64,000 nucleotides of DNA from Cyanobacteriota bacterium (GCA_046045965.1 JBJOKS010000001.1:124244-188243), one strand, 5' to 3'; numbered from the stretch's first letter, positions 5,951-52,958 are shown. A program made the numbers and translations. Notes: generated by a model not told the origin, from the letters alone.

Positions 5951-6020
5951 CCATAAAAGGTAATTGAAAATTCAAAATCACAGCTTCATTGTGTAAATAA
6001 TAAATCAGGAGAGCAGTCAC

Positions 6021-6542
6021 GTGAGAAGTAGTGAAGAATATAAACGCGAGATTATGAAAGATTTGGCTCAGGGAAATGTCGAATCTTTGGATAATATGCC
6101 GACAGATACGACAAATGAATATGAAACTTTTGATGATTTTGCTCAACGCACAACAACAGATCAAAGACGGCATTTATTTAATCAATCTTTGCAACCAGAC
6201 CGTATTCCTCCTAGTCAGATGGAACCGGAGTTACAAAAGGCAATTTCTCAAATTAAACCCAATGAAAGAGATGATGTAGCAAGAGCTTTTTTCAAACAAT
6301 TAAAGGAACGAGGACTGGATGATAAAAGGTTAGAACAGCAGTTAAATCTTTCTACTCATCATCCTAACCGTATGACTGCTGATGATGTGAGTAAATTAGC
6401 CTCTTTTACCTATCATAATCATCCTGATGTTTTTCGTGAAGTGTTAGCGGAACAACCAGGAATTATCAAGTTTCTTAGTAATCCTATTGTGGCGGGAATT
6501 ATTGGTATTGCGGCGGCTAAATGGTTGGGTAGTCGGAAGTGA
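6021..6542 (+). CDS. Hypothetical protein with C-terminal membrane anchor
   Basis: GTG start with AGGAG upstream. C-terminal hydrophobic segment IVAGIIGIAAAKWLG. No recognisable domain. Confidence 0.5.
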   Translation: MRSSEEYKREIMKDLAQGNVESLDNMPTDTTNEYETFDDFAQRTTTDQRRHLFNQSLQPDRIPPSQMEPELQKAISQIKPNERDDVARAFFKQLKERGLDDKRLEQQLNLSTHHPNRMTADDVSKLASFTYHNHPDVFREVLAEQPGIIKFLSNPIVAGIIGIAAAKWLGSRK

Positions 6543-17588: not shown

Positions 17589-17976
17589 TGGAGCTTATGG
17601 GAGTTGAACCCATGTCCAAATTGGGTATTAACCCACCGCTCGTTCACAGGTTTAGCCTTTCTGACCCTCAAGGCGGGAATCGTTCATTATCCCGAACGTA
17701 GGATGCTCTGATTTAATCTTAGTCAGCAAGCCAACCAGAGAACGCTTACTGAAGCATCCGTTGGGGTTAGGTCTCTAGTCCTTAACGGAGTCAAACTGGA
17801 GACGCTCGAACCTAAAAGAGGTTTCTTAGGCAGCTACTAGAGCTTCCCGACGAGCAAATTTTACGATATTGTTCGCATTTACTTTTTTTTCGAGTCTTTG
17901 ATTTCCGAGAGGAGACTCGCTCTCGACCTGAATCACAGAGAAGCTTTCGCCAACCTGTCGAAACCGTTAAAGCCCC
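17589..17976 (-). ncRNA. ssrA: tmRNA (SsrA)
   Basis: The minus strand starts GGGGCTTTAACGGTTTCGACAGG and ends ...ATGGGTTCAACTCCCATAAGCTCCA. The acceptor GGGGCUU/AAGCUCC includes G3:U70, there is a T-loop GGTTCAACTCC, and CCA is not encoded. Tag ORF 17826-17876 = ANNIVKFARREALVAA*. Confidence 0.92.
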
Positions 17977-45717: not shown

Positions 45718-45823
45718 CTTGATTTTTGCTTGGGAATTTGGGATTTTTATTCATTGTAAAAATATCTTGTGAAATATTTGCATTTTTTGGGTTTTTGTTT
45801 TATTATTGAAATTCATGGCACCT

Positions 45824-45910
45824 GGAGAGGTGGCCGAGTGGTTGAAGGCGCAGACCTGGAAAGTCTGTTATGCAGAAATGTATACGAGGGTTCGAATCCC
45901 TCCCTCTCCG
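45824..45910 (+). tRNA. tRNA-Ser (anticodon GGA)
   Basis: Acceptor GGAGAGG/CCTCTCC. Anticodon arm CAGAC-CTGGAAA-GTCTG. Long variable arm. T-arm GAGGG-TTCGAAT-CCCTC. CCA not encoded. Confidence 0.95.
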
Positions 45911-45940
45911 TTTATAAAGCAAATTTGAATATTTAAGTTG

Positions 45941-46116: not shown

Positions 46117-46500
46117 ATGTCGGACACATCCAATTTTCAAATTACCATTGCTTTCACTGATACAGACTTAGACAACGAAGACAAAAATCAGGAAGTGCAG
46201 AAGCTACTGAGTCAAATGCAGAAGCTAGATGAAATAGAAGACGTTAACCGCGTTCTTGACCCCAACCCCCCGGAGGGAAACAAAGCTGGAGGAGGTTTTT
46301 TACCCGGACTACTAACAGCACAAGTTAACCCAGCCAACTTTTTGAAATTATTTGGATTTTTGGCAGAACGTTTGGGTAACAAACCGATTAAACTCAATGT
46401 TAAAGCCCCAGATGGTCGGGAAATAAACGTCGAAGCCAGCAGTAAAGAAGAATTTGAATTTGCTTGGCAAAAAGCACAAGATTTTATTAATAACAAATAA
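46117..46500 (+). CDS. EACC1-like (effector-associated constant component) small protein
   Basis: 127 aa. N-terminal strand FQITIAF, an acidic stretch, PPEGNKAGGGFLPGLL, then LFGFLAERLGNKPIKLNVKAPDGREINVEASS. This parallels the EACC1 pattern as I recall it (..P.GE.GG....L.V.L......L..WL......V.L.V...G..V.V.A). It lies 9 nt upstream of the caspase gene. Confidence 0.55.
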   Translation: MSDTSNFQITIAFTDTDLDNEDKNQEVQKLLSQMQKLDEIEDVNRVLDPNPPEGNKAGGGFLPGLLTAQVNPANFLKLFGFLAERLGNKPIKLNVKAPDGREINVEASSKEEFEFAWQKAQDFINNK

Positions 46501-46509
46501 GGCTGGACA

Positions 46510-48282
46510 ATGGCGAGAATTGCACTATTGATAGGAGTAAGTGAATATGAACCAGGCTTAAATCGACTGGCTGGGGCTGTAAAAGATGTGGACGCAATGC
46601 GGCGAGTTTTACAGCATCCAGAAATGGGTGGTTTTGCTGAGAGTGAAATTATAGTCATGCAAAATCCCCAACGACAGGATATGGAAAATGCTATTGAAAA
46701 GCTTTTTGCTAACCGTCAGAAAGATGATTTATTGTTGCTTTATTTCTCCGGTCATGGAATTACAGATGATAGTGGGAGGTTATATCTAACTAATAGCCAA
46801 ACTCACAAATATGACAATGGTAATTTAGTTATAACTAGTGCTACTTCTGCCAGTTTAATACATCAATTTATGGACAATGGGCATTGTAAGTCTAAACGAC
46901 AGGTGATTATTCTTGACTGTTGTTATAGCGGAGCTTTTGCGGAAGGGATGAAAGTAAAAGATGGTGGTAGTGTAGATATTAATAAGCAATTAGGAGGAAA
47001 AGGTAGGGCAGTTTTGACTTCTTCCTCTTGTGGCGAATATTCTTTTGAACAAAGAGGAGAAGAATTATCAGTTTATACCCGTTACATTGTTGAAGGTATT
47101 GAAACTGGTGCGGCTGATACTGACAACGATGGTATGATTTCTGTGGACGAATTACATGAATATGCCTTCAAAAAAGTGCAGGAAGCAGCACCAGCAATGA
47201 GTCCAAAAATTTATGCTGTGGAAGAAGGTTATAAAATTAAGGTAGCAAATGCACCTGTTGGTAATCCCAAATTAAAATATCGCAAGGAAGTAGAAAAATA
47301 TTTACGAGATGGTAAAATTTCAACTATTGGTAATCGAATTTTAAAACGTTATCAAAATGAATTGGGTTTATCAGATGATGAAGTTAAGGAAATACAGGAT
47401 GAAGTTTTAGAACCTATTCGTAGATATCAAGCTAATTTGAAAGAGTATGAAGAAGCTTTGCGAGAAGCTTTGGAAGATGAAACAAGTCTTAGCCAAGAGA
47501 CACAAAATGAGTTAAAACACTTTCAGCAAGTTTTACAACTTAGAGATGAGGATGTAGAACCTATTCACGATAGGTTAATTTTGTCTTCAAATCATCCCTC
47601 AGAACAAACAATCATTGCACCTCCTCAAACTACTCAACCTTTAGAACTGCTTAACTCATATCTTGGTTCTCAACCAAACATTTCAGCAGTTGAGGCTGGA
47701 GAGATTATTAAGTCAGGTCAAAATATACAAGCTCCTACTCAAACAGATGACCTGTCATCAGAAAGAGGCATAGACTACACCACACTGCGCGACTTACTAG
47801 CAGCACAAAAATGGCAGGAAGCAGATACAGAAACCTACGAAGTAATGATTAAAGCTGTAGGTAAAAAGTCTGGGGACTGGTTTACAAGTGATGAATTATT
47901 AAATTTCCCATGTAAAGACCTCCGCACAATTGACCAATTGTGGGTAAAATACAGTAATGGACGATTTGGGTTTAGCGTCCAAAAGGAAATTTACTTGAGT
48001 GTTGGTGGTAAGCCTGATGGCGAGTATGACTCAGTTGCCTGGGTTAGATTTGCTAAAAAAGTAGGATGGAAAAACGAAGAAGATAAATGGATAGAAAAGG
48101 TAAAATTTTATACCTCAGCCCCGAAAGGACACTTACCTGTAAGTTTGGATTGGAGATTAAGTTGGATAGAGGATGAATGGGAAGGATTAGAAGGATTGAG
48201 TTGGGAGTTATGGGAAGTATGGATGAGTTGGGTGGTTGGTTTCTCTTCTCTCGCATCGAGACTTGTAAACTGTAACATCTAA
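46510..48282 (+). CDS. Caspase-like (peptidase C14, orthocaspase) - helical linker - GUN4 domain fusion protein
   Basis: Catalytic His in LLYFSGHGITD and catalytic Cys in VIILDCCYSGAF. C-terminal GUN4-like region: LLAAQKWQEADTETYEVMIKAVGKKSGDWFTSDELLNFPCKDLRTIDQLWVKYSNGRFGFSVQKEIY. Confidence 0.85.
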   Translation: MARIALLIGVSEYEPGLNRLAGAVKDVDAMRRVLQHPEMGGFAESEIIVMQNPQRQDMENAIEKLFANRQKDDLLLLYFSGHGITDDSGRLYLTNSQTHKYDNGNLVITSATSASLIHQFMDNGHCKSKRQVIILDCCYSGAFAEGMKVKDGGSVDINKQLGGKGRAVLTSSSCGEYSFEQRGEELSVYTRYIVEGIETGAADTDNDGMISVDELHEYAFKKVQEAAPAMSPKIYAVEEGYKIKVANAPVGNPKLKYRKEVEKYLRDGKISTIGNRILKRYQNELGLSDDEVKEIQDEVLEPIRRYQANLKEYEEALREALEDETSLSQETQNELKHFQQVLQLRDEDVEPIHDRLILSSNHPSEQTIIAPPQTTQPLELLNSYLGSQPNISAVEAGEIIKSGQNIQAPTQTDDLSSERGIDYTTLRDLLAAQKWQEADTETYEVMIKAVGKKSGDWFTSDELLNFPCKDLRTIDQLWVKYSNGRFGFSVQKEIYLSVGGKPDGEYDSVAWVRFAKKVGWKNEEDKWIEKVKFYTSAPKGHLPVSLDWRLSWIEDEWEGLEGLSWELWEVWMSWVVGFSSLASRLVNCNI

Positions 48283-48315
48283 GGCTTTCAGAAATCTGTA
48301 AATATTTATTACAAC

Positions 48316-49071
48316 CTACTTTCCCACGGAAGAATCAACATTTGCGAATTTCGTTACCTGGCACGGCGGGGTTATCTCCTGCACCTCCGTACTTTCTGTT
48401 ACCCTCTGCTTATCCCAAGGTAAACTCATCTGTCCTGGTGACTTCTTGCTTTTACCGCTTTTCTTCATCGACGGTAAAAACCGACTTCCCCAATAGTTTC
48501 TTTTTTCTGGTTTGGCCTTTGGTTTATACTTCTTGCAAAACCGCCGATATTTAGCTGCACATTCTTCCAGAGTCCTCCCCAATTGCAAAAATGCCGGATG
48601 CCATTGAGTGATACCATCATTACTCAAGCGGTCATGAGTACCATAATTACTAAAATCATAAAAAAAGCCTTGTTGTATTCCTGCTGCTTTCGGGTTAGCG
48701 TGGATATAGCGTAAAGTATTTAAGGCACGACGATAATCTGTATTTTCAAACCCTGTACTGTGGTATCGCTTTTCCCAAAAATGACCTGTACGGTTCAGCA
48801 TCCGATTAAAACACATAGCAGTGTACCAGTTTAACCAGTGCATAACTTTTGGTAATTCTTCTGGCTGTTTTGGTTCTAGGAGATAATGAACATGATTACT
48901 CATAATGCACAGTGCATAGAGTTTAAAACCATACTTTTGTTGTGCTTTTTTAATCGCATAAAGAAAAACTTCACGACATTCTAACCGTGTAAGTCGAAAT
49001 TCGCGGTTATTGCAACGGGTAGTGATGTGATAACAGAAACCTGGTTGAAAATTGCGTTTTGGACGAGACAT
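48316..49071 (-). CDS. IS200-like Y1 (HUH) transposase, RAYT-type
   Basis: CYHITTRCNNREF, MSNHVHYLLEP (HUH) and RYIHANPKAAG (catalytic Tyr region). Start taken at MSRPKRNF. Confidence 0.8.
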   Translation of the reverse strand: MSRPKRNFQPGFCYHITTRCNNREFRLTRLECREVFLYAIKKAQQKYGFKLYALCIMSNHVHYLLEPKQPEELPKVMHWLNWYTAMCFNRMLNRTGHFWEKRYHSTGFENTDYRRALNTLRYIHANPKAAGIQQGFFYDFSNYGTHDRLSNDGITQWHPAFLQLGRTLEECAAKYRRFCKKYKPKAKPEKRNYWGSRFLPSMKKSGKSKKSPGQMSLPWDKQRVTESTEVQEITPPCQVTKFANVDSSVGK

Positions 49072-49236
49072 GGAGATAACAATTTTAGGCAAATAATTCA
49101 CCACCAGCAGACCGGGGTATGATATGCTCAAATTCAAAAGTTGTAACTGTTAAATATTCAGCAGTACGACAGTAAGCACAACAATCTGAAAAACAATGAC
49201 GAATTTTTGTTTGTAATTCAACAGAAATATAAACAC

Positions 49237-49578
49237 TCACGCTACTCTAGATTTGTTTTGAAGTTGGTTTAATGTATATCTTGCTCTAGTTTTAAGAATA
49301 TTCAATTGATCAATCTGTGCTATTAATCTTTCTAAAGTTTCACTTTCTTCATTTGACAATTGATTCTCAGAATTTTTCATTAATAACTCATCTAATCGAA
49401 TCTGACTTTTAAGAGACAAAGAAGTTTCTGCTAAAGCTTGCAACTCATCCAAACTTAAACCAATCAATAATTCAGTATCTGCTGATAAATTGGTTAGCTG
49501 TTGGTAAGTTTCCAGATTTAACAATACACCAACTTTTTCTCCCTGGGTATTAGTTATATACTGCACTGATTCAGACAT
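49237..49578 (-). CDS. Antitoxin-like protein (Phd/YefM-like N-terminus), no adjacent toxin
   Basis: VQYITNTQGEKVGVLLNLETYQQL is an N-terminal strand-helix typical of Phd/YefM-like antitoxins. The tail is helical. Confidence 0.45.
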   Translation of the reverse strand: MSESVQYITNTQGEKVGVLLNLETYQQLTNLSADTELLIGLSLDELQALAETSLSLKSQIRLDELLMKNSENQLSNEESETLERLIAQIDQLNILKTRARYTLNQLQNKSRVA

Positions 49579-49687: not shown

Positions 49688-50077
49688 ATGAGTAACCAAA
49701 TCACAATTACTCTACCAGATGACGTTTACCAAAAAGCTGAACACTTCGCACGTTTAGCAAACCGTGATTTAGCCAGCGTCTTAATTGAGACTATCCAATT
49801 ATCCATCCCACCTGTTAGCCAAGAAGCAGCAACCCTTGAACCTGTATCAACACTTTCTGAGCAGCAAGTTTTAGCTTTGACAGAATTACAAATGAAATCT
49901 GAAGAAGATAGCCGTTTGAGTGAATTGCTAGACAGACAACAAGCTGGTATTCTCACAGATTTAGAACATTCTGAATTACAAGCACTCATGCAAATTTACC
50001 AAGAAGGTTTATTGCGAAAAGCTACTGCATTGAGTGAAGCTGTAAAACGTGGGTTAATTAAAAAGTTAGATGAGTGA
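49688..50077 (+). CDS. RHH antitoxin-like protein
   Basis: ITITLPDDVYQKAEHFARLANRDLASVLIETI has the ribbon-helix-helix pattern. Its helical tail resembles that of the 49237 product. Confidence 0.45.
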   Translation: MSNQITITLPDDVYQKAEHFARLANRDLASVLIETIQLSIPPVSQEAATLEPVSTLSEQQVLALTELQMKSEEDSRLSELLDRQQAGILTDLEHSELQALMQIYQEGLLRKATALSEAVKRGLIKKLDE

Positions 50078-50094
50078 GTTCTAGGAGAGAAAAA

Positions 50095-50259
50095 ATGAGC
50101 GTTTCAATTGAGCGTATTTTAAGTGAAATTGATCAATTGACTCTAGTAGAACAGATGCAAGTATTAGAGCATTTGGTGAAGCAGATGAAGCAATCTGTAG
50201 AAGCTGTAGCGGTAACTCCAAAGCCTAAGTATGGAGGCAGCCTTAATGAAGCTAAGTGA
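50095..50259 (+). CDS. Small addiction-module-component-like protein (TIGR02574-like)
   Basis: ATG with AGGAGA 8 nt upstream. MSVSIERILSEIDQLTLVEQMQVLEHLVKQM resembles that family. No intact toxin ORF follows. Confidence 0.4.
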   Translation: MSVSIERILSEIDQLTLVEQMQVLEHLVKQMKQSVEAVAVTPKPKYGGSLNEAK

Positions 50260-50480: not shown

Positions 50481-51911
50481 GTGAGTTCTGGATTTGATTA
50501 CGATTTAGTGATTATTGGCGCGGGTGTAGGTGGTCATGGCGCAGCCCTACACGCTGTCAATTATGGTCTGAAAACAGCGATTATTGAAGCAGCAGACATG
50601 GGGGGAACCTGTGTTAACCGAGGTTGTATTCCCTCTAAGGCGCTTTTAGCTGCTTCCGGAAGGGTGCGGGAGTTACGCAACGCTCACCACCTGAAATCTT
50701 TGGGAATTCAAATTGGTAATGTAGAATTTGATCGGCAAGCGATCGCAAATCATGCTGATAATCTTGTTTCTAAAATTCAAGGTGACTTAACCAACAGTCT
50801 CAAACGGTTGGGAGTCGATATTATCCGGGGTTGGGGAAAAGTCGCTGGTTCACAAAAAGTCACCGTCTCTACAGATAGCGGTGAAAAAACCATCACAGCC
50901 CAAAATATCATTCTTTCCCCCGGTTCTGTTCCCTTCGTTCCTCCCGGAATTGAAGTAGATGGCAAAACAGTATTTACCAGCGACCAAGGGGTAAAATTAG
51001 AATCTCTACCCCAGTGGATAGCAATTATTGGTAGTGGTTACATCGGTTTGGAATTTTCTGATATTTACACTGCTTTGGGTTGTGAAGTCACAATGATTGA
51101 AGCCCTAGATGTGTTAATGCCAGGATTTGACCGTGATATTGCTAAACTGGCAGAACGGGTTTTAATTACTCCCCGCGATATTGAAACCAAAGTGGGAATA
51201 TACGCAAAGAAAATCATTCCTGGTTCTCCAGTGGTGATTGAATTAGCAGATTTCCAAACTAAAGAAGATTTAGAAGTGTTGGAAGTTGATGCTTGTTTAG
51301 TAGCTACAGGTCGCATCCCCGCTACTAAAAATCTGGGTTTAGATTCTGTGGGTGTGGAACTGGATAAACGGAATTTCATCCCTGTTAACGATGGAATGGC
51401 CGTACTTTCAGCAGGTGAAGTAGTCCCCCATCTGTATGCAATTGGTGATGCTAACGGGAAAATGATGTTAGCTCACGCGGCTTCGGCTCAAGGTATCATT
51501 GCGGTAGAAAATATCCTGGGTAAAAACAAAAAAGTAGACTATCGCAGTATTCCCGCAGCAGCTTTTACCCACCCCGAAGTTAGTTATGTGGGTTTAACAG
51601 AACCAGCTGCTCAAGAATTGGGTTTAGCTGAAGGCTTTGAAATTGGAACAAGTAAGAGTTACTTCAAAGGCAATTCTAAAGCTTTAGCAGAAAATGAAGC
51701 TGATGGTATCGCTAAAGTGATTTATCGTAAAGATACAGGTGAAGTCTTAGGTGTGCATATTTTCGGTTTACACGCTTCTGATTTGATTCATGAAGCATCC
51801 GCCGCAGTTGCTAACCGTCAATCTGTAAAAGACCTCGCTTATTTAGTTCACGCCCATCCTACACTATCAGAAGTGTTAGATGAAGCCTATAAACGAGCGA
51901 TCGCAAGTTAG
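50481..51911 (+). CDS. lpdA: Dihydrolipoyl dehydrogenase
   Basis: [13 protein letters not shown] motif, redox-active [10 protein letters not shown], a second GSGYIGLEF motif, and C-terminal HAHPTLSE. Confidence 0.95.
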
Positions 51912-52070
51912 GTGATTGGTGATTGGTGATTGGTGATTGGTGATTGGGAATCATAAAAATTGATTACCCAGTCCCTATCTTCCCAGTTCCCAGTCCCTAT
52001 CTTCCCAGTCCCTATCTTCCCAGTCCCCAGTCCCCAGTCCCCATTCCCCATTCCCCATTCCCCAGTCCCC
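51911..52070. repeat. STRR arrays (GGTGATT x5; CCCAGTC/CCCTATCTT/CCCCATT units)
   Basis: Read directly. The ORF track's trpC N-terminal extension runs through the second array. Confidence 0.95.
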
Positions 52071-52073
52071 AAA

Positions 52074-52958
52074 ATGCAAATCCGTCGTCGTTCACCTAGT
52101 CCCGCTATTGATGTATCTATTATTCGCTACCAAGCAGTTTTAGATGATGCAGCGCCAAATCATATTTTAGAAGAAATTGTTTGGCAAAAAGAAATAGAAG
52201 TTGAGCAAATGCGGGAAAAGCTGCCTTTGCCAGAATTGCAGAAAAAAGCTCTCACAGCACCGCCAACCCGTGATTTTATCGCTGCATTACGTCAAGGTAA
52301 AACCAAACCCGCCCTAATTGCAGAAGTTAAAAAAGCTTCTCCTAGTAAGGGAGTTTTACGGGCAGATTTTGACCCTGTAGAAATTGCTAAAGCCTATCAA
52401 GACGGTGGTGCTAGTTGTCTTTCAGTTCTCACAGATACAAAGTTTTTTCAAGGTAGTTTTGAAAACTTATCTCTAGTACGTGCTGCCGTAGATTTGCCAT
52501 TGTTATGTAAGGAATTTATCATTTATCCTTATCAAATGTATTTGGCGCGAATTAATGGTGCAGATGCGGTTTTATTGATAGCGGCAATTCTCAGTGATCA
52601 AGATTTACAATACTTTGTCAAAATTGCTAATAAGCTAAATATGGCTGCTTTGATAGAAGTCCATAGTTTAGAAGAACTTGACAGAGTTTTATCCTTAGAT
52701 GGTGTTTCTTTAGTTGGTATAAATAATCGCAACTTAGCAGATTTTTCCGTTGACTTACAAACTACCTGTCAATTACTCAAAGACAGAGGTAGTCAATTAC
52801 AAGCTAAAAATATTCTGGTAGTGAGTGAATCAGGAATTCATCACCCAGAGGATTTAAGTGTAGTAGAAACAGCCGGCGCAACAGCTGTACTCATTGGTGA
52901 GTCTTTGGTAAAACAACCAGATCCGAAATTAGCAATTACTAATCTTTTTGGTAAATAG
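52074..52958 (+). CDS. trpC: Indole-3-glycerol-phosphate synthase
   Basis: [33 protein letters not shown]. Start set at MQIRRR after the repeat array. Confidence 0.93.

Follow-up and report, generated by a model that had tools for sequence, protein, structure and literature searches.

Systems in which a small protein of the EACC1 family accompanies a caspase-like protease have been delineated computationally and, in one case, characterised by experiment. The two-gene 'System 4' of Kaur, Burroughs, Iyer and Aravind (2020; PMC7159879), which has no NTPase of its own, pairs EACC1 with a caspase bearing any of about 50 alternative C-terminal domains; it is tied to multicellular bacteria and is mainly actinobacterial, and GUN4 is absent from its listed C-terminal domains, being mentioned in that study for cyanobacterial VMAP systems and, generally, for caspase fusions. 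In Ktedonobacter racemifer, where EACC1 is paired with caspase-Avs12 (Evans et al., 2025; bioRxiv 10.1101/2025.11.14.688446), the caspase cuts EACC1 at a site predicted at Asp49 into an inert N-terminal fragment of 5.7 kDa and a C-terminal fragment of 7.1 kDa in which all toxicity resides, only cleaved EACC1 permeabilises liposomes, and the C-terminal domains of the proteases act as sensors; these experiments contradict the polarity proposed in 2020, with EACC1 as the sensor, and GUN4 is not mentioned in that work. Among cyanobacterial orthocaspases, caspase-GUN4 is the fourth commonest architecture (29 of 473; PMC8283722), represented in Microcystis aeruginosa PCC 7806 by MaOC3 and MaOC5 (PMC5756287); only MaOC1, which carries no extra domain, has been biochemically characterised among these enzymes. 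Here we describe a locus in which an EACC1-family gene is followed by a caspase-GUN4 gene, located in a 64,000-nucleotide stretch of DNA from a Cyanobacteriota bacterium (GCA_046045965.1, JBJOKS010000001.1:124244-188243; hereafter the window, from whose first letter all positions are counted).

The locus is composed of two open reading frames (ORFs) on the same strand, an EACC1-family gene of 127 amino acids encoding a predicted pro-toxin (46117-46500, +) and a gene of 590 amino acids encoding the protease (46510-48282, +), both with ATG starts and separated by 9 nucleotides, exactly as recorded in an earlier note made from this DNA alone. The best reading of the pair, in line with the death or defence role proposed in that note, is a toxin module of two genes, of the EACC1-caspase type and activated by its protease, and we hold it to be probable. 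Like the K. racemifer system, the locus has EACC1 directly upstream of a protease with an N-terminal caspase-like domain, an EACC1 organised as N-domain, loop and C-domain, and a variable C-terminal part in the sensor position; unlike it, the putative sensor is a GUN4 paralogue, no Avs-type STAND ATPase or other NTPase is present, the host is a filamentous cyanobacterium, and the favoured P1 residue is Lys56 rather than Asp49. With 'System 4' (families PF19953 and NF047832) it shares the gene order, the Gly-rich hydrophobic core of EACC1 and the constant caspase. The module contains no NTPase and corresponds to that system; the earlier view of the protease as an effector of NTP-dependent conflict systems is not supported. 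The architecture itself is already known, since caspase-GUN4 proteins have been catalogued for years and NCBI maintains a dedicated model for the caspase. Equally, the description of EACC1 as a constant partner defined only computationally has been overtaken by the demonstration that it is a cleaved toxin with the caspase as its activator; the statement that the architecture is without experimental work holds for the GUN4-type variant and no longer for the module, which was characterised in 2025.

The 127-amino-acid protein can be accepted as a member of the EACC1 family from the behaviour of its homologues, with the caveat that its own score against Pfam EACC1 (PF19953) is 17.4 bits (E 0.0046), below the curated cutoff of 23.6, in a match that runs over nearly all of the 107-position profile (3-93). 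The same family is matched at E ≤ 0.01 by 28 of 40 aligned homologues that are 54-92% identical (best value 2.6e-7), two other families receiving single stray matches, and several homologues carry a precomputed PF19953 assignment. Overall, 283 homologues were detectable, nearly all of about 125-130 amino acids and cyanobacterial. Their neighbourhoods were scanned with one genome per species, giving 75 loci, 73 of them informative (5 without a downstream caspase, 2 at a contig edge). A caspase gene lies directly 3' of the EACC1 homologue, on the same strand and typically 1-12 nucleotides away, in 66 of the 73 informative cyanobacterial loci, so that the adjacency of small ORF and caspase, which the earlier note had singled out for checking, proves to be conserved. 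The linkage is nevertheless asymmetric, amounting to about 90% when viewed from EACC1 and being incomplete when viewed from the caspase. For caspase-GUN4 genes that have no EACC1 in cis, it follows that the proteases act in trans or on other substrates. Further caspase-GUN4 genes without an upstream EACC1 were seen at L146, L149, L190 and L112 (L-numbers label the compared genomic or metagenomic loci), L149 carrying two such genes in tandem.

The AlphaFold2 model of EACC1 (pLDDT, the predicted local distance difference test, 79) consists of a beta-alpha-beta unit (residues 7-47), a low-confidence loop (48-60) and a C-terminal beta/alpha domain, and comparison with solved structures gave no significant relative. 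The N-terminal unit (residues 1-47; 46117-46257, +), predicted to be autoinhibitory, is modelled as a strand (7-13), a helix (20-35) and a second strand (40-47) and agrees with the published N-domain of K. racemifer EACC1. The loop that follows, DPNPPEGNKAGGG (residues 48-60; 46258-46296, +), is exposed, with pLDDT below 50 at residues 54-58. The C-terminal domain (residues 61-127; 46297-46497, +), the predicted pore-forming fragment, begins with the Gly-rich hydrophobic FLPGLLTAQV, and the conserved central segment AGGGFLPGLLTAQV is present, with G59, G60 and G64 conserved at 77-98%; such a segment is the hallmark of EACC1 (Kaur et al., 2020; PMC7159879). In the model it forms a beta-strand within a soluble alpha/beta domain and not a transmembrane helix. 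The window EACC1 is 53-60% identical to EACC1s that are paired with non-GUN4 caspases, and 37-42% identical to a second subtype found at four loci (L054, L066, L069 and L074; genes at about 6001-6393), which is characterised by 'NRVAELNAPVGSKSITGYVVGQV' and a longer C-terminal beta-hairpin. These second-subtype genes adjoin caspase-GUN4 genes about 72% identical in DNA to that of the window, while DNA similarity between the two EACC1 subtypes is confined to the 5' third. The toxin part of EACC1 thus seems to be exchanged independently of the protease, and the heads and tails of EACC1-caspase modules have been recombined; swapping of this kind has been noted by Klemencic and Funk for Microcystis (PMC5756287).

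The large protein begins with a caspase (C14) protease domain (residues 1-250; 46510-47259, +), recognised by Pfam, NCBIfam and PADLOC models. Pfam Peptidase_C14 (PF00656) matches residues 3-224 (E 1.5e-24; 87.4 bits against a cutoff of 21.4), and with the NCBIfam model NF047832, 'caspase, EACC1-associated type', the score is 166.4 bits (cutoff 140). The motifs quoted in the earlier note for the large protein (YFSGHG, ILDCCYSGAF and, from its C-terminal part, FPCKDLRTIDQLWVKYSNGRFGFSVQ) are all present, and the catalytic His82 (46753-46755) and Cys138 (46921-46923, within D136-x-C138) do not vary among 58 caspase-GUN4 homologues or among 36 EACC1-type caspases of all kinds. The AlphaFold2 model of the 590-residue protein (pLDDT 79; low confidence in the loop after the catalytic Cys, residues 140-153) retrieved MALT1 (5e-11), caspase-11, Yca1 and the metacaspases AtMC4 and AtMC9 by Foldseek over the N-terminal domain, and at the level of sequence profiles the dyad columns align with GHG and LLDMC of MALT1. 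The caspase fold with both catalytic residues, read from the sequence in the earlier note, is therefore well founded. An EF-hand-type loop, DTDNDGMISVDE (residues 203-214; 47116-47151, +), lies within the domain; it is a perfect DxDxDGxIxxxE, matched by Pfam EF-hand_5 at E 0.00067, below the cutoff. Conservation of D203, D207 and E214 is 90% or higher in EACC1-type caspases with any C-terminal type, and the motif occurs in 82 of 121 homologues. Because this loop is conserved whatever the C-terminal type, it suggests Ca2+ as a co-regulator of EACC1-associated caspases, as in metacaspases. Beyond the domain lies a helical region (residues 251-360; 47260-47589, +; helices at 253-360 with pLDDT 80-96) containing two 'LGL..E[ED]...IE..VL.P' repeats, which is kept in 64 EACC1-adjacent caspases irrespective of their C-terminal domain. 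It matches no Pfam family and, weakly, PADLOC PDC-S48, and may serve the constant head for docking or oligomerisation. The 'helical linker' of the earlier note is thus helical and conserved over these residues, and gives way at residues 361-410 (47590-47739, +) to a disordered linker of variable length, with pLDDT below 50, gapped and unconserved in the homologue alignment.

Two candidate cleavage sites are present in the EACC1 loop, Asp48 (46258-46260, +) and Lys56 (46282-46284, +). Among 121 EACC1 homologues, position 56 is Lys or Arg in 118, Asp48 is found in 110 and Arg45 in 105; position 56 is invariant across both EACC1 subtypes and sits in the lowest-confidence part of the loop. Searched against PDB, the profile of the caspase domain returned only Arg/Lys-specific members of the clan (metacaspases 4 and 9, Yca1, MCA2 and MALT1). 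Two invariant residues, D26 and D136, fall opposite 'LVD' and 'LLDMC' of MALT1, whose aspartates we take to be the acidic S1 residues Asp365 and Asp462, respectively; the match of E180 to Glu500 comes from manual alignment alone. Cleavage after Arg or Lys is common to every characterised non-caspase C14 enzyme (PMC5756287). Given that the predicted S1 pocket is like those of Arg/Lys-specific proteases and that position 56 is conserved, a cut after Lys56, with expected products of 56 and 71 residues, is favoured over one after Asp48, the latter being possible by analogy with Evans et al. (2025).

The C-terminal part of the protease is a GUN4-paralogue core (residues 411-543; 47740-48138, +) that ends at the codons for GHLP (48127-48138). 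Pfam GUN4 (PF05419) matches residues 417-555 far above its cutoff (E 1.5e-41; 142 bits against 29.2), phmmer aligns the region with 1Z3X, 4YKB and 1Y6I, and Foldseek, with the C-terminal part of the model (about 411-545), retrieves 1Z3X, 4XKB and 1Y6I, confirming the GUN4-like domain reported earlier. Like GUN4/Ycf53 (Synechocystis Sll0558; 1Y6I, 4XKB), to which identity is about 28-29%, the domain has the 'cupped hand' core, the hydrophobic palm and the GHLP loop, and most residues of the 'greasy palm' are conserved (equivalents of F138, L143, I146, W150, F160, V162, W183, L207 and P208). Unlike this Mg-chelatase cofactor, it has no N-terminal helical-bundle domain and no LxNxLR motif, and helices alpha7 and alpha8 are replaced by a tail. 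The motif, sought as [LIVM]xNx[LIVM]R, is kept in 0 of 108 family members, the window protein reading VSLDWR after GHLP. It is in this motif that Arg214, described as 'absolutely essential' for porphyrin binding in the study that also lists the palm residues (PMC1084334), and Asn211, essential for bilin binding, are located; GUN4 paralogues lack Asn211 (PMC10156173). The domain is of the paralogue type and is not the regulator of chlorophyll synthesis.

These results bear directly on the trigger put forward in the earlier note, according to which GUN4 binds a porphyrin or other tetrapyrrole (candidates being free protoporphyrin IX, Mg-Proto or a bilin) and pigment imbalance, caused by photo-oxidative damage or by phage takeover, sets off the protease and cell death. 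In its favour, most palm residues are conserved along with the GUN4 fold, the window protein happens to carry R549 at the ungapped equivalent of Arg214, and Kaur et al. (2020; PMC7159879) proposed that GUN4 fusions sense tetrapyrrole status. In the same direction, plasmid-borne GUN4-like domains were found in cyanobacteria only, and a tblastn search found none in phages. Because LxNxLR, with the Arg214 and Asn211 required for porphyrin and bilin binding, is absent from all 108 homologues, the tetrapyrrole trigger is weakened and has lost its main support; moreover, the part of GUN4 that includes Arg214, Arg217, Val218 and Ala219 (alpha7/alpha8) is replaced by an unconserved tail, which is hard to fit with a fixed small-molecule ligand. 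A canonical GUN4 ligand, porphyrin or bilin, is thus probably not the trigger, and we regard this explanation as unlikely. Lying at the mouth of the GUN4 pocket, the hypervariable tail points instead towards a diversifying, conflict-type ligand.

In a Pfam-based census of the C-terminal domains of 63 EACC1-adjacent caspases from other genomes, the window's own gene excluded, FGE-sulfatase was found in 24, GUN4 in 8, periplasmic-binding domains in 6, TPR in 5, EAL in 2, and Hsp70 and Clp_N in one each. GUN4 is accordingly the second commonest C-terminal type among the cyanobacterial EACC1-caspase modules sampled here, and is one of many interchangeable domains. This interchangeable place matches both the sensor position of the characterised system, occupied by targets of diversity-generating retroelements (DGRs), DnaK and Avs (Evans et al., 2025), and the variable position of Kaur et al. 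(2020). Surveys of cyanobacterial orthocaspases (PMC8283722, PMC7475262, PMC5756287) had likewise described proteins with a p20 caspase and a C-terminal GUN4, and had noted the swapping of FGE-sulfatase and GUN4, but did not consider the upstream EACC1, the helical region, the loss of LxNxLR, or the hypervariable tail and 3' element described below. The GUN4 region is also matched, at E 6.9e-45 and more strongly than by Pfam GUN4, by positions 284-429 of the PADLOC kinase profile PD-T4-6 (window 46906-48171, residues 133-554). A link to the validated Escherichia coli defence protein was considered and set aside, as no paper linking PD-T4-6 with GUN4 was found. PADLOC calls of PD-T4-6 in S. thermophilus are PknB-like kinases, and kinase-GUN4 proteins exist in cyanobacteria, so that the match probably reflects cyanobacterial kinase-GUN4 sequences within the model.

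Taken as a protease-activated toxin module, the locus would operate as follows. EACC1 would be a latent pore-forming toxin whose N-terminal beta-alpha-beta unit keeps the C-terminal domain inactive, while the caspase domain and the helical region would form the constant 'head' of the protease and the GUN4 paralogue its variable, signal-receiving 'tail'. Engagement of the GUN4 end by a trigger would activate the protease, induced oligomerisation being the probable means, as it is for other enzymes of the caspase family; once active, the protease would cut the exposed EACC1 loop (D48-G60), with Lys56 as the most probable P1. This would release a C-terminal fragment of about 70 residues, starting from the Gly-rich segment, which would oligomerise in the membrane and kill or arrest the cell, with abortive infection or stress-induced death of the filamentous cyanobacterium as the outcome. 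The scheme builds on family membership, gene linkage, the intact dyad, the predicted folds, loop conservation and C-terminal interchangeability; cleavage of EACC1, pore formation and toxicity would be expected here by homology to the Ktedonobacter system. Its logic is that of bacterial gasdermins and their caspase-like proteases, in which proteolytic removal of an autoinhibitory part frees a latent pore-former to kill the cell, although EACC1 is unrelated to gasdermins (127 amino acids, alpha/beta fold) and its putative inhibitory part is N-terminal, whereas that of gasdermins is a C-terminal peptide.

Several points weigh against this reading. Cleavage, toxicity and pore formation have been demonstrated for the K. 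racemifer homologue only, and not for a cyanobacterial or GUN4-type member; the PADLOC models do not include EACC1, and the GUN4 variant has no known phage-defence phenotype. The assignment of the small ORF to EACC1 passes through homologues, its own score being below the cutoff. From the caspase side, EACC1 lies upstream of caspase-GUN4 in 4 of 6 genomic loci and is absent from the other 2, and it is upstream in 1 of 9 members of a small and redundant metagenomic set. The role of GUN4 as sensor rather than effector is putative, assigned by position. Finally, the site of Evans et al. is an Asp (Asp49) and Asp48 is 91% conserved here, which leaves P1 at Lys56 unproven.

The incomplete linkage is also the starting point for a different explanation, in which the caspase-GUN4 protein is a non-lethal regulatory or housekeeping protease acting in differentiation or stress and the small protein is its chaperone, inhibitor or adaptor. 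Beyond the caspase-GUN4 genes that have no EACC1 neighbour, it could draw on the fact that the chromosomal slot is kept across genera amid housekeeping genes, with no classical defence island, and on reviews that mention possible non-death roles of orthocaspases. It has to contend with the linkage of about 90% from EACC1 to caspase, with the homology of the EACC1 family to a demonstrated pore-forming pro-toxin, and with C-terminal domains that are shuffled and diversified in a manner typical of conflict systems, and we consider it improbable. Least probable of all is the arrangement proposed for the system as a whole by Kaur et al. (2020; PMC7159879), with EACC1 as a sensor associated with the membrane and activating the caspase, and autoproteolysis freeing a GUN4 effector, which might for instance interfere with Mg-chelatase and halt chlorophyll synthesis: the linker (361-410) and the loop at 140-153 offer possible autoprocessing sites and orthocaspase MaOC1 does autoprocess (PMC5756287), but the one characterised system has the opposite polarity (EACC1 the cleaved toxin, the C-terminal domain the sensor), the Gly-rich segment is modelled as a strand in a soluble domain and not as a transmembrane helix, and the fused GUN4 is without the motif of its orthologs.

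The caspase-GUN4 gene ends in a segment with unusual evolutionary behaviour. Residues 544-577 (48139-48241, +), which stand in place of GUN4 helices alpha7 and alpha8, form a hypervariable tail that begins right after the GHLP codons, is 24-140 nucleotides long among the compared loci and shows no conservation of sequence, length or reading frame. In the window it has no DNA similarity to relatives that are 84-89% identical on either side. In 33 pairs of metagenomic loci, mean identity was 93% over a 400-nucleotide GUN4 core, 47% over the tail and 91% over the DNA element that follows it. The clearest pair is L130 and L192, which show one difference in about 190 aligned bases up to GHLP, then 64-68 unrelated nucleotides, and again about 99% identity, which sets in at the element's first base and extends through the downstream gene. 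A local replacement process is at work in the tail, because neutral drift cannot randomise 65 nucleotides between flanks that are about 99% identical. The hypervariable segment together with the element occurs at window 48139-48310 and at L001, L002, L004, L054, L066, L069, L074 and L076-L195.

The element itself is a conserved DNA sequence of about 55 nucleotides (48242 to about 48310, +) with a sharp 5' boundary, which contains the stop codon of the gene and a hairpin, TCTCG-CAT-CGAGA (48249-48261). It carries TAA at 48266, 48273 and 48280, 7 nucleotides apart and thus one in each frame; the frame in which it is translated differs between genomes, and over 124 metagenomic instances the three frames are used 44:36:38, and in 106 of 116 the element ends the ORF of a GUN4 domain. 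It is single-copy in the window and was found in none of 67 loci with non-GUN4 C-terminal domains, whereas it also terminates a kinase-GUN4 protein, and a degenerate copy lies at the junction of tandem GUN4 domains. What looked like a conserved C-terminal peptide motif (SRLVNCNI, FSRIETCKV or LLSHRDL) was rejected as such, being a single DNA element translated in three frames. A reading of the element as structured RNA or as a terminator was also rejected (fold z-score 0.83, no Rfam family), and no tandem repeats were found. Depletion of C in the tail, considered as a deaminase-like signature, is not general (0 C in 100 nucleotides in the window and 3% at L054, 12-24% at other loci).

Convergent with the caspase-GUN4 gene and immediately beyond the element lies a gene for a RAYT-like Y1 (IS200-type) transposase (48316-49071, -), matched by Pfam Y1_Tnp at 5.3e-19 and by NCBIfam REP_Tyr_transpos at 72 bits, below the cutoff of 80. 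Of 86 metagenomic instances of the element, 23 have a homologue in convergent orientation no more than 1.8 kb downstream; the gene is present at L004, reduced to C-terminal-coding remnants at L001, L196 and L199, and absent from L002. The element was also tried as a classic flank of REP (repetitive extragenic palindromic) type, as in REP/REPIN-RAYT systems, and rejected: it has no inverted copy beyond the RAYT-like gene, is not dispersed and is found only at GUN4 3' ends. A literature search found no paper linking RAYTs with GUN4. The nearest described parallel is provided by the C-type-lectin (FGE-sulfatase) sensors diversified by DGRs on sister EACC1-caspases, FGE-sulfatase being the commonest sister architecture (24 of 63), where a variable segment at the 3' end of the sensor is likewise followed by a conserved DNA element. 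Unlike those, the GUN4 tails vary in length and frame and not only at adenine-templated positions, and the associated enzyme is a RAYT-like Y1 transposase and not a reverse transcriptase. The tail was rejected as a DGR target of fixed length and adenine templating on account of these differences in length (24-140 nucleotides) and frame, and of tails unrelated between near-identical loci; a reverse transcriptase or template repeat was not searched for. That the tail of GUN4-paralogue sensors, on caspases and on kinases, is actively diversified by an undescribed mechanism is a tentative proposal, well short of an even chance.

With regard to genomic context, the module is preceded by tRNA-Ser(GGA) (45823-45911, +; ARAGORN, Rfam tRNA 62.7 bits), which lies outside it and serves as a marker of a conserved chromosomal slot. 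The gene order inositol phosphatase-SNase-Fer2-tRNA-Ser(GGA)-caspase-GUN4 is common to the window, Calothrix NIES-2098 (L199) and Tolypothrix PCC 7910 (L201), the last two carrying in the same slot a caspase-GUN4 gene of a different subclade without EACC1. The position next to tRNA-Ser(GGA) is an old slot kept across Nostocales genera with varying contents. The nearest relatives of the gene pair (L001, L002 and L004; 83-89% DNA identity) have no upstream sequence in common with the window and no tRNA nearby, L002 being syntenic on the downstream side, and the nearest named relatives are Anabaena, Dolichospermum and Cuspidothrix. The 'variable islet' beside a tRNA gene that had been proposed for the locus is thus accurate for its contents and not for the slot, which is conserved, nor for the closest pair relatives, which lie elsewhere. 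On the far side, an HNH-endonuclease fragment of 51 amino acids (49085-49240, -; HNH_5 E 1.7e-5) abuts the RAYT-like gene, followed by a Phd/RelB-like small ORF with weak matches and two more small ORFs (49237-49578, -; 49688-50259, +); together these look like toxin-antitoxin-type clutter. ORFs of 113 and 129 amino acids are kept beside the gene pair in relatives. Farther along, between dihydrolipoyl-dehydrogenase-like and trpC-like genes, ORFs on both strands of 51900-52100 encode low-complexity repeats, which look like short tandemly repeated cyanobacterial sequences. A tmRNA gene was identified by ARAGORN at 17589-17976 (-), with the tag peptide ANNIVKFARREALVAA.

As a gene pair, the locus is a routine case of a system that annotation has covered since 2020 and whose mechanism was characterised in 2025; it adds little to this beyond the frequency of GUN4 sensors, their missing tetrapyrrole-binding motif and a predicted cleavage after Lys or Arg rather than Asp. 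The tail and its DNA element are the more valuable outcome and worth pursuing. If the transposase drives the replacement, or the element serves as a recombination site for it, this would be receptor diversification at the DNA level feeding a caspase/EACC1 death module, comparable to DGRs yet unrelated to them. An active process of this kind would give bacterial immunity a new way of diversifying its receptors and would suggest what a domesticated Y1 transposase may do, and it would also explain the many cyanobacterial GUN4 'paralogues' that are unconnected to chlorophyll synthesis.

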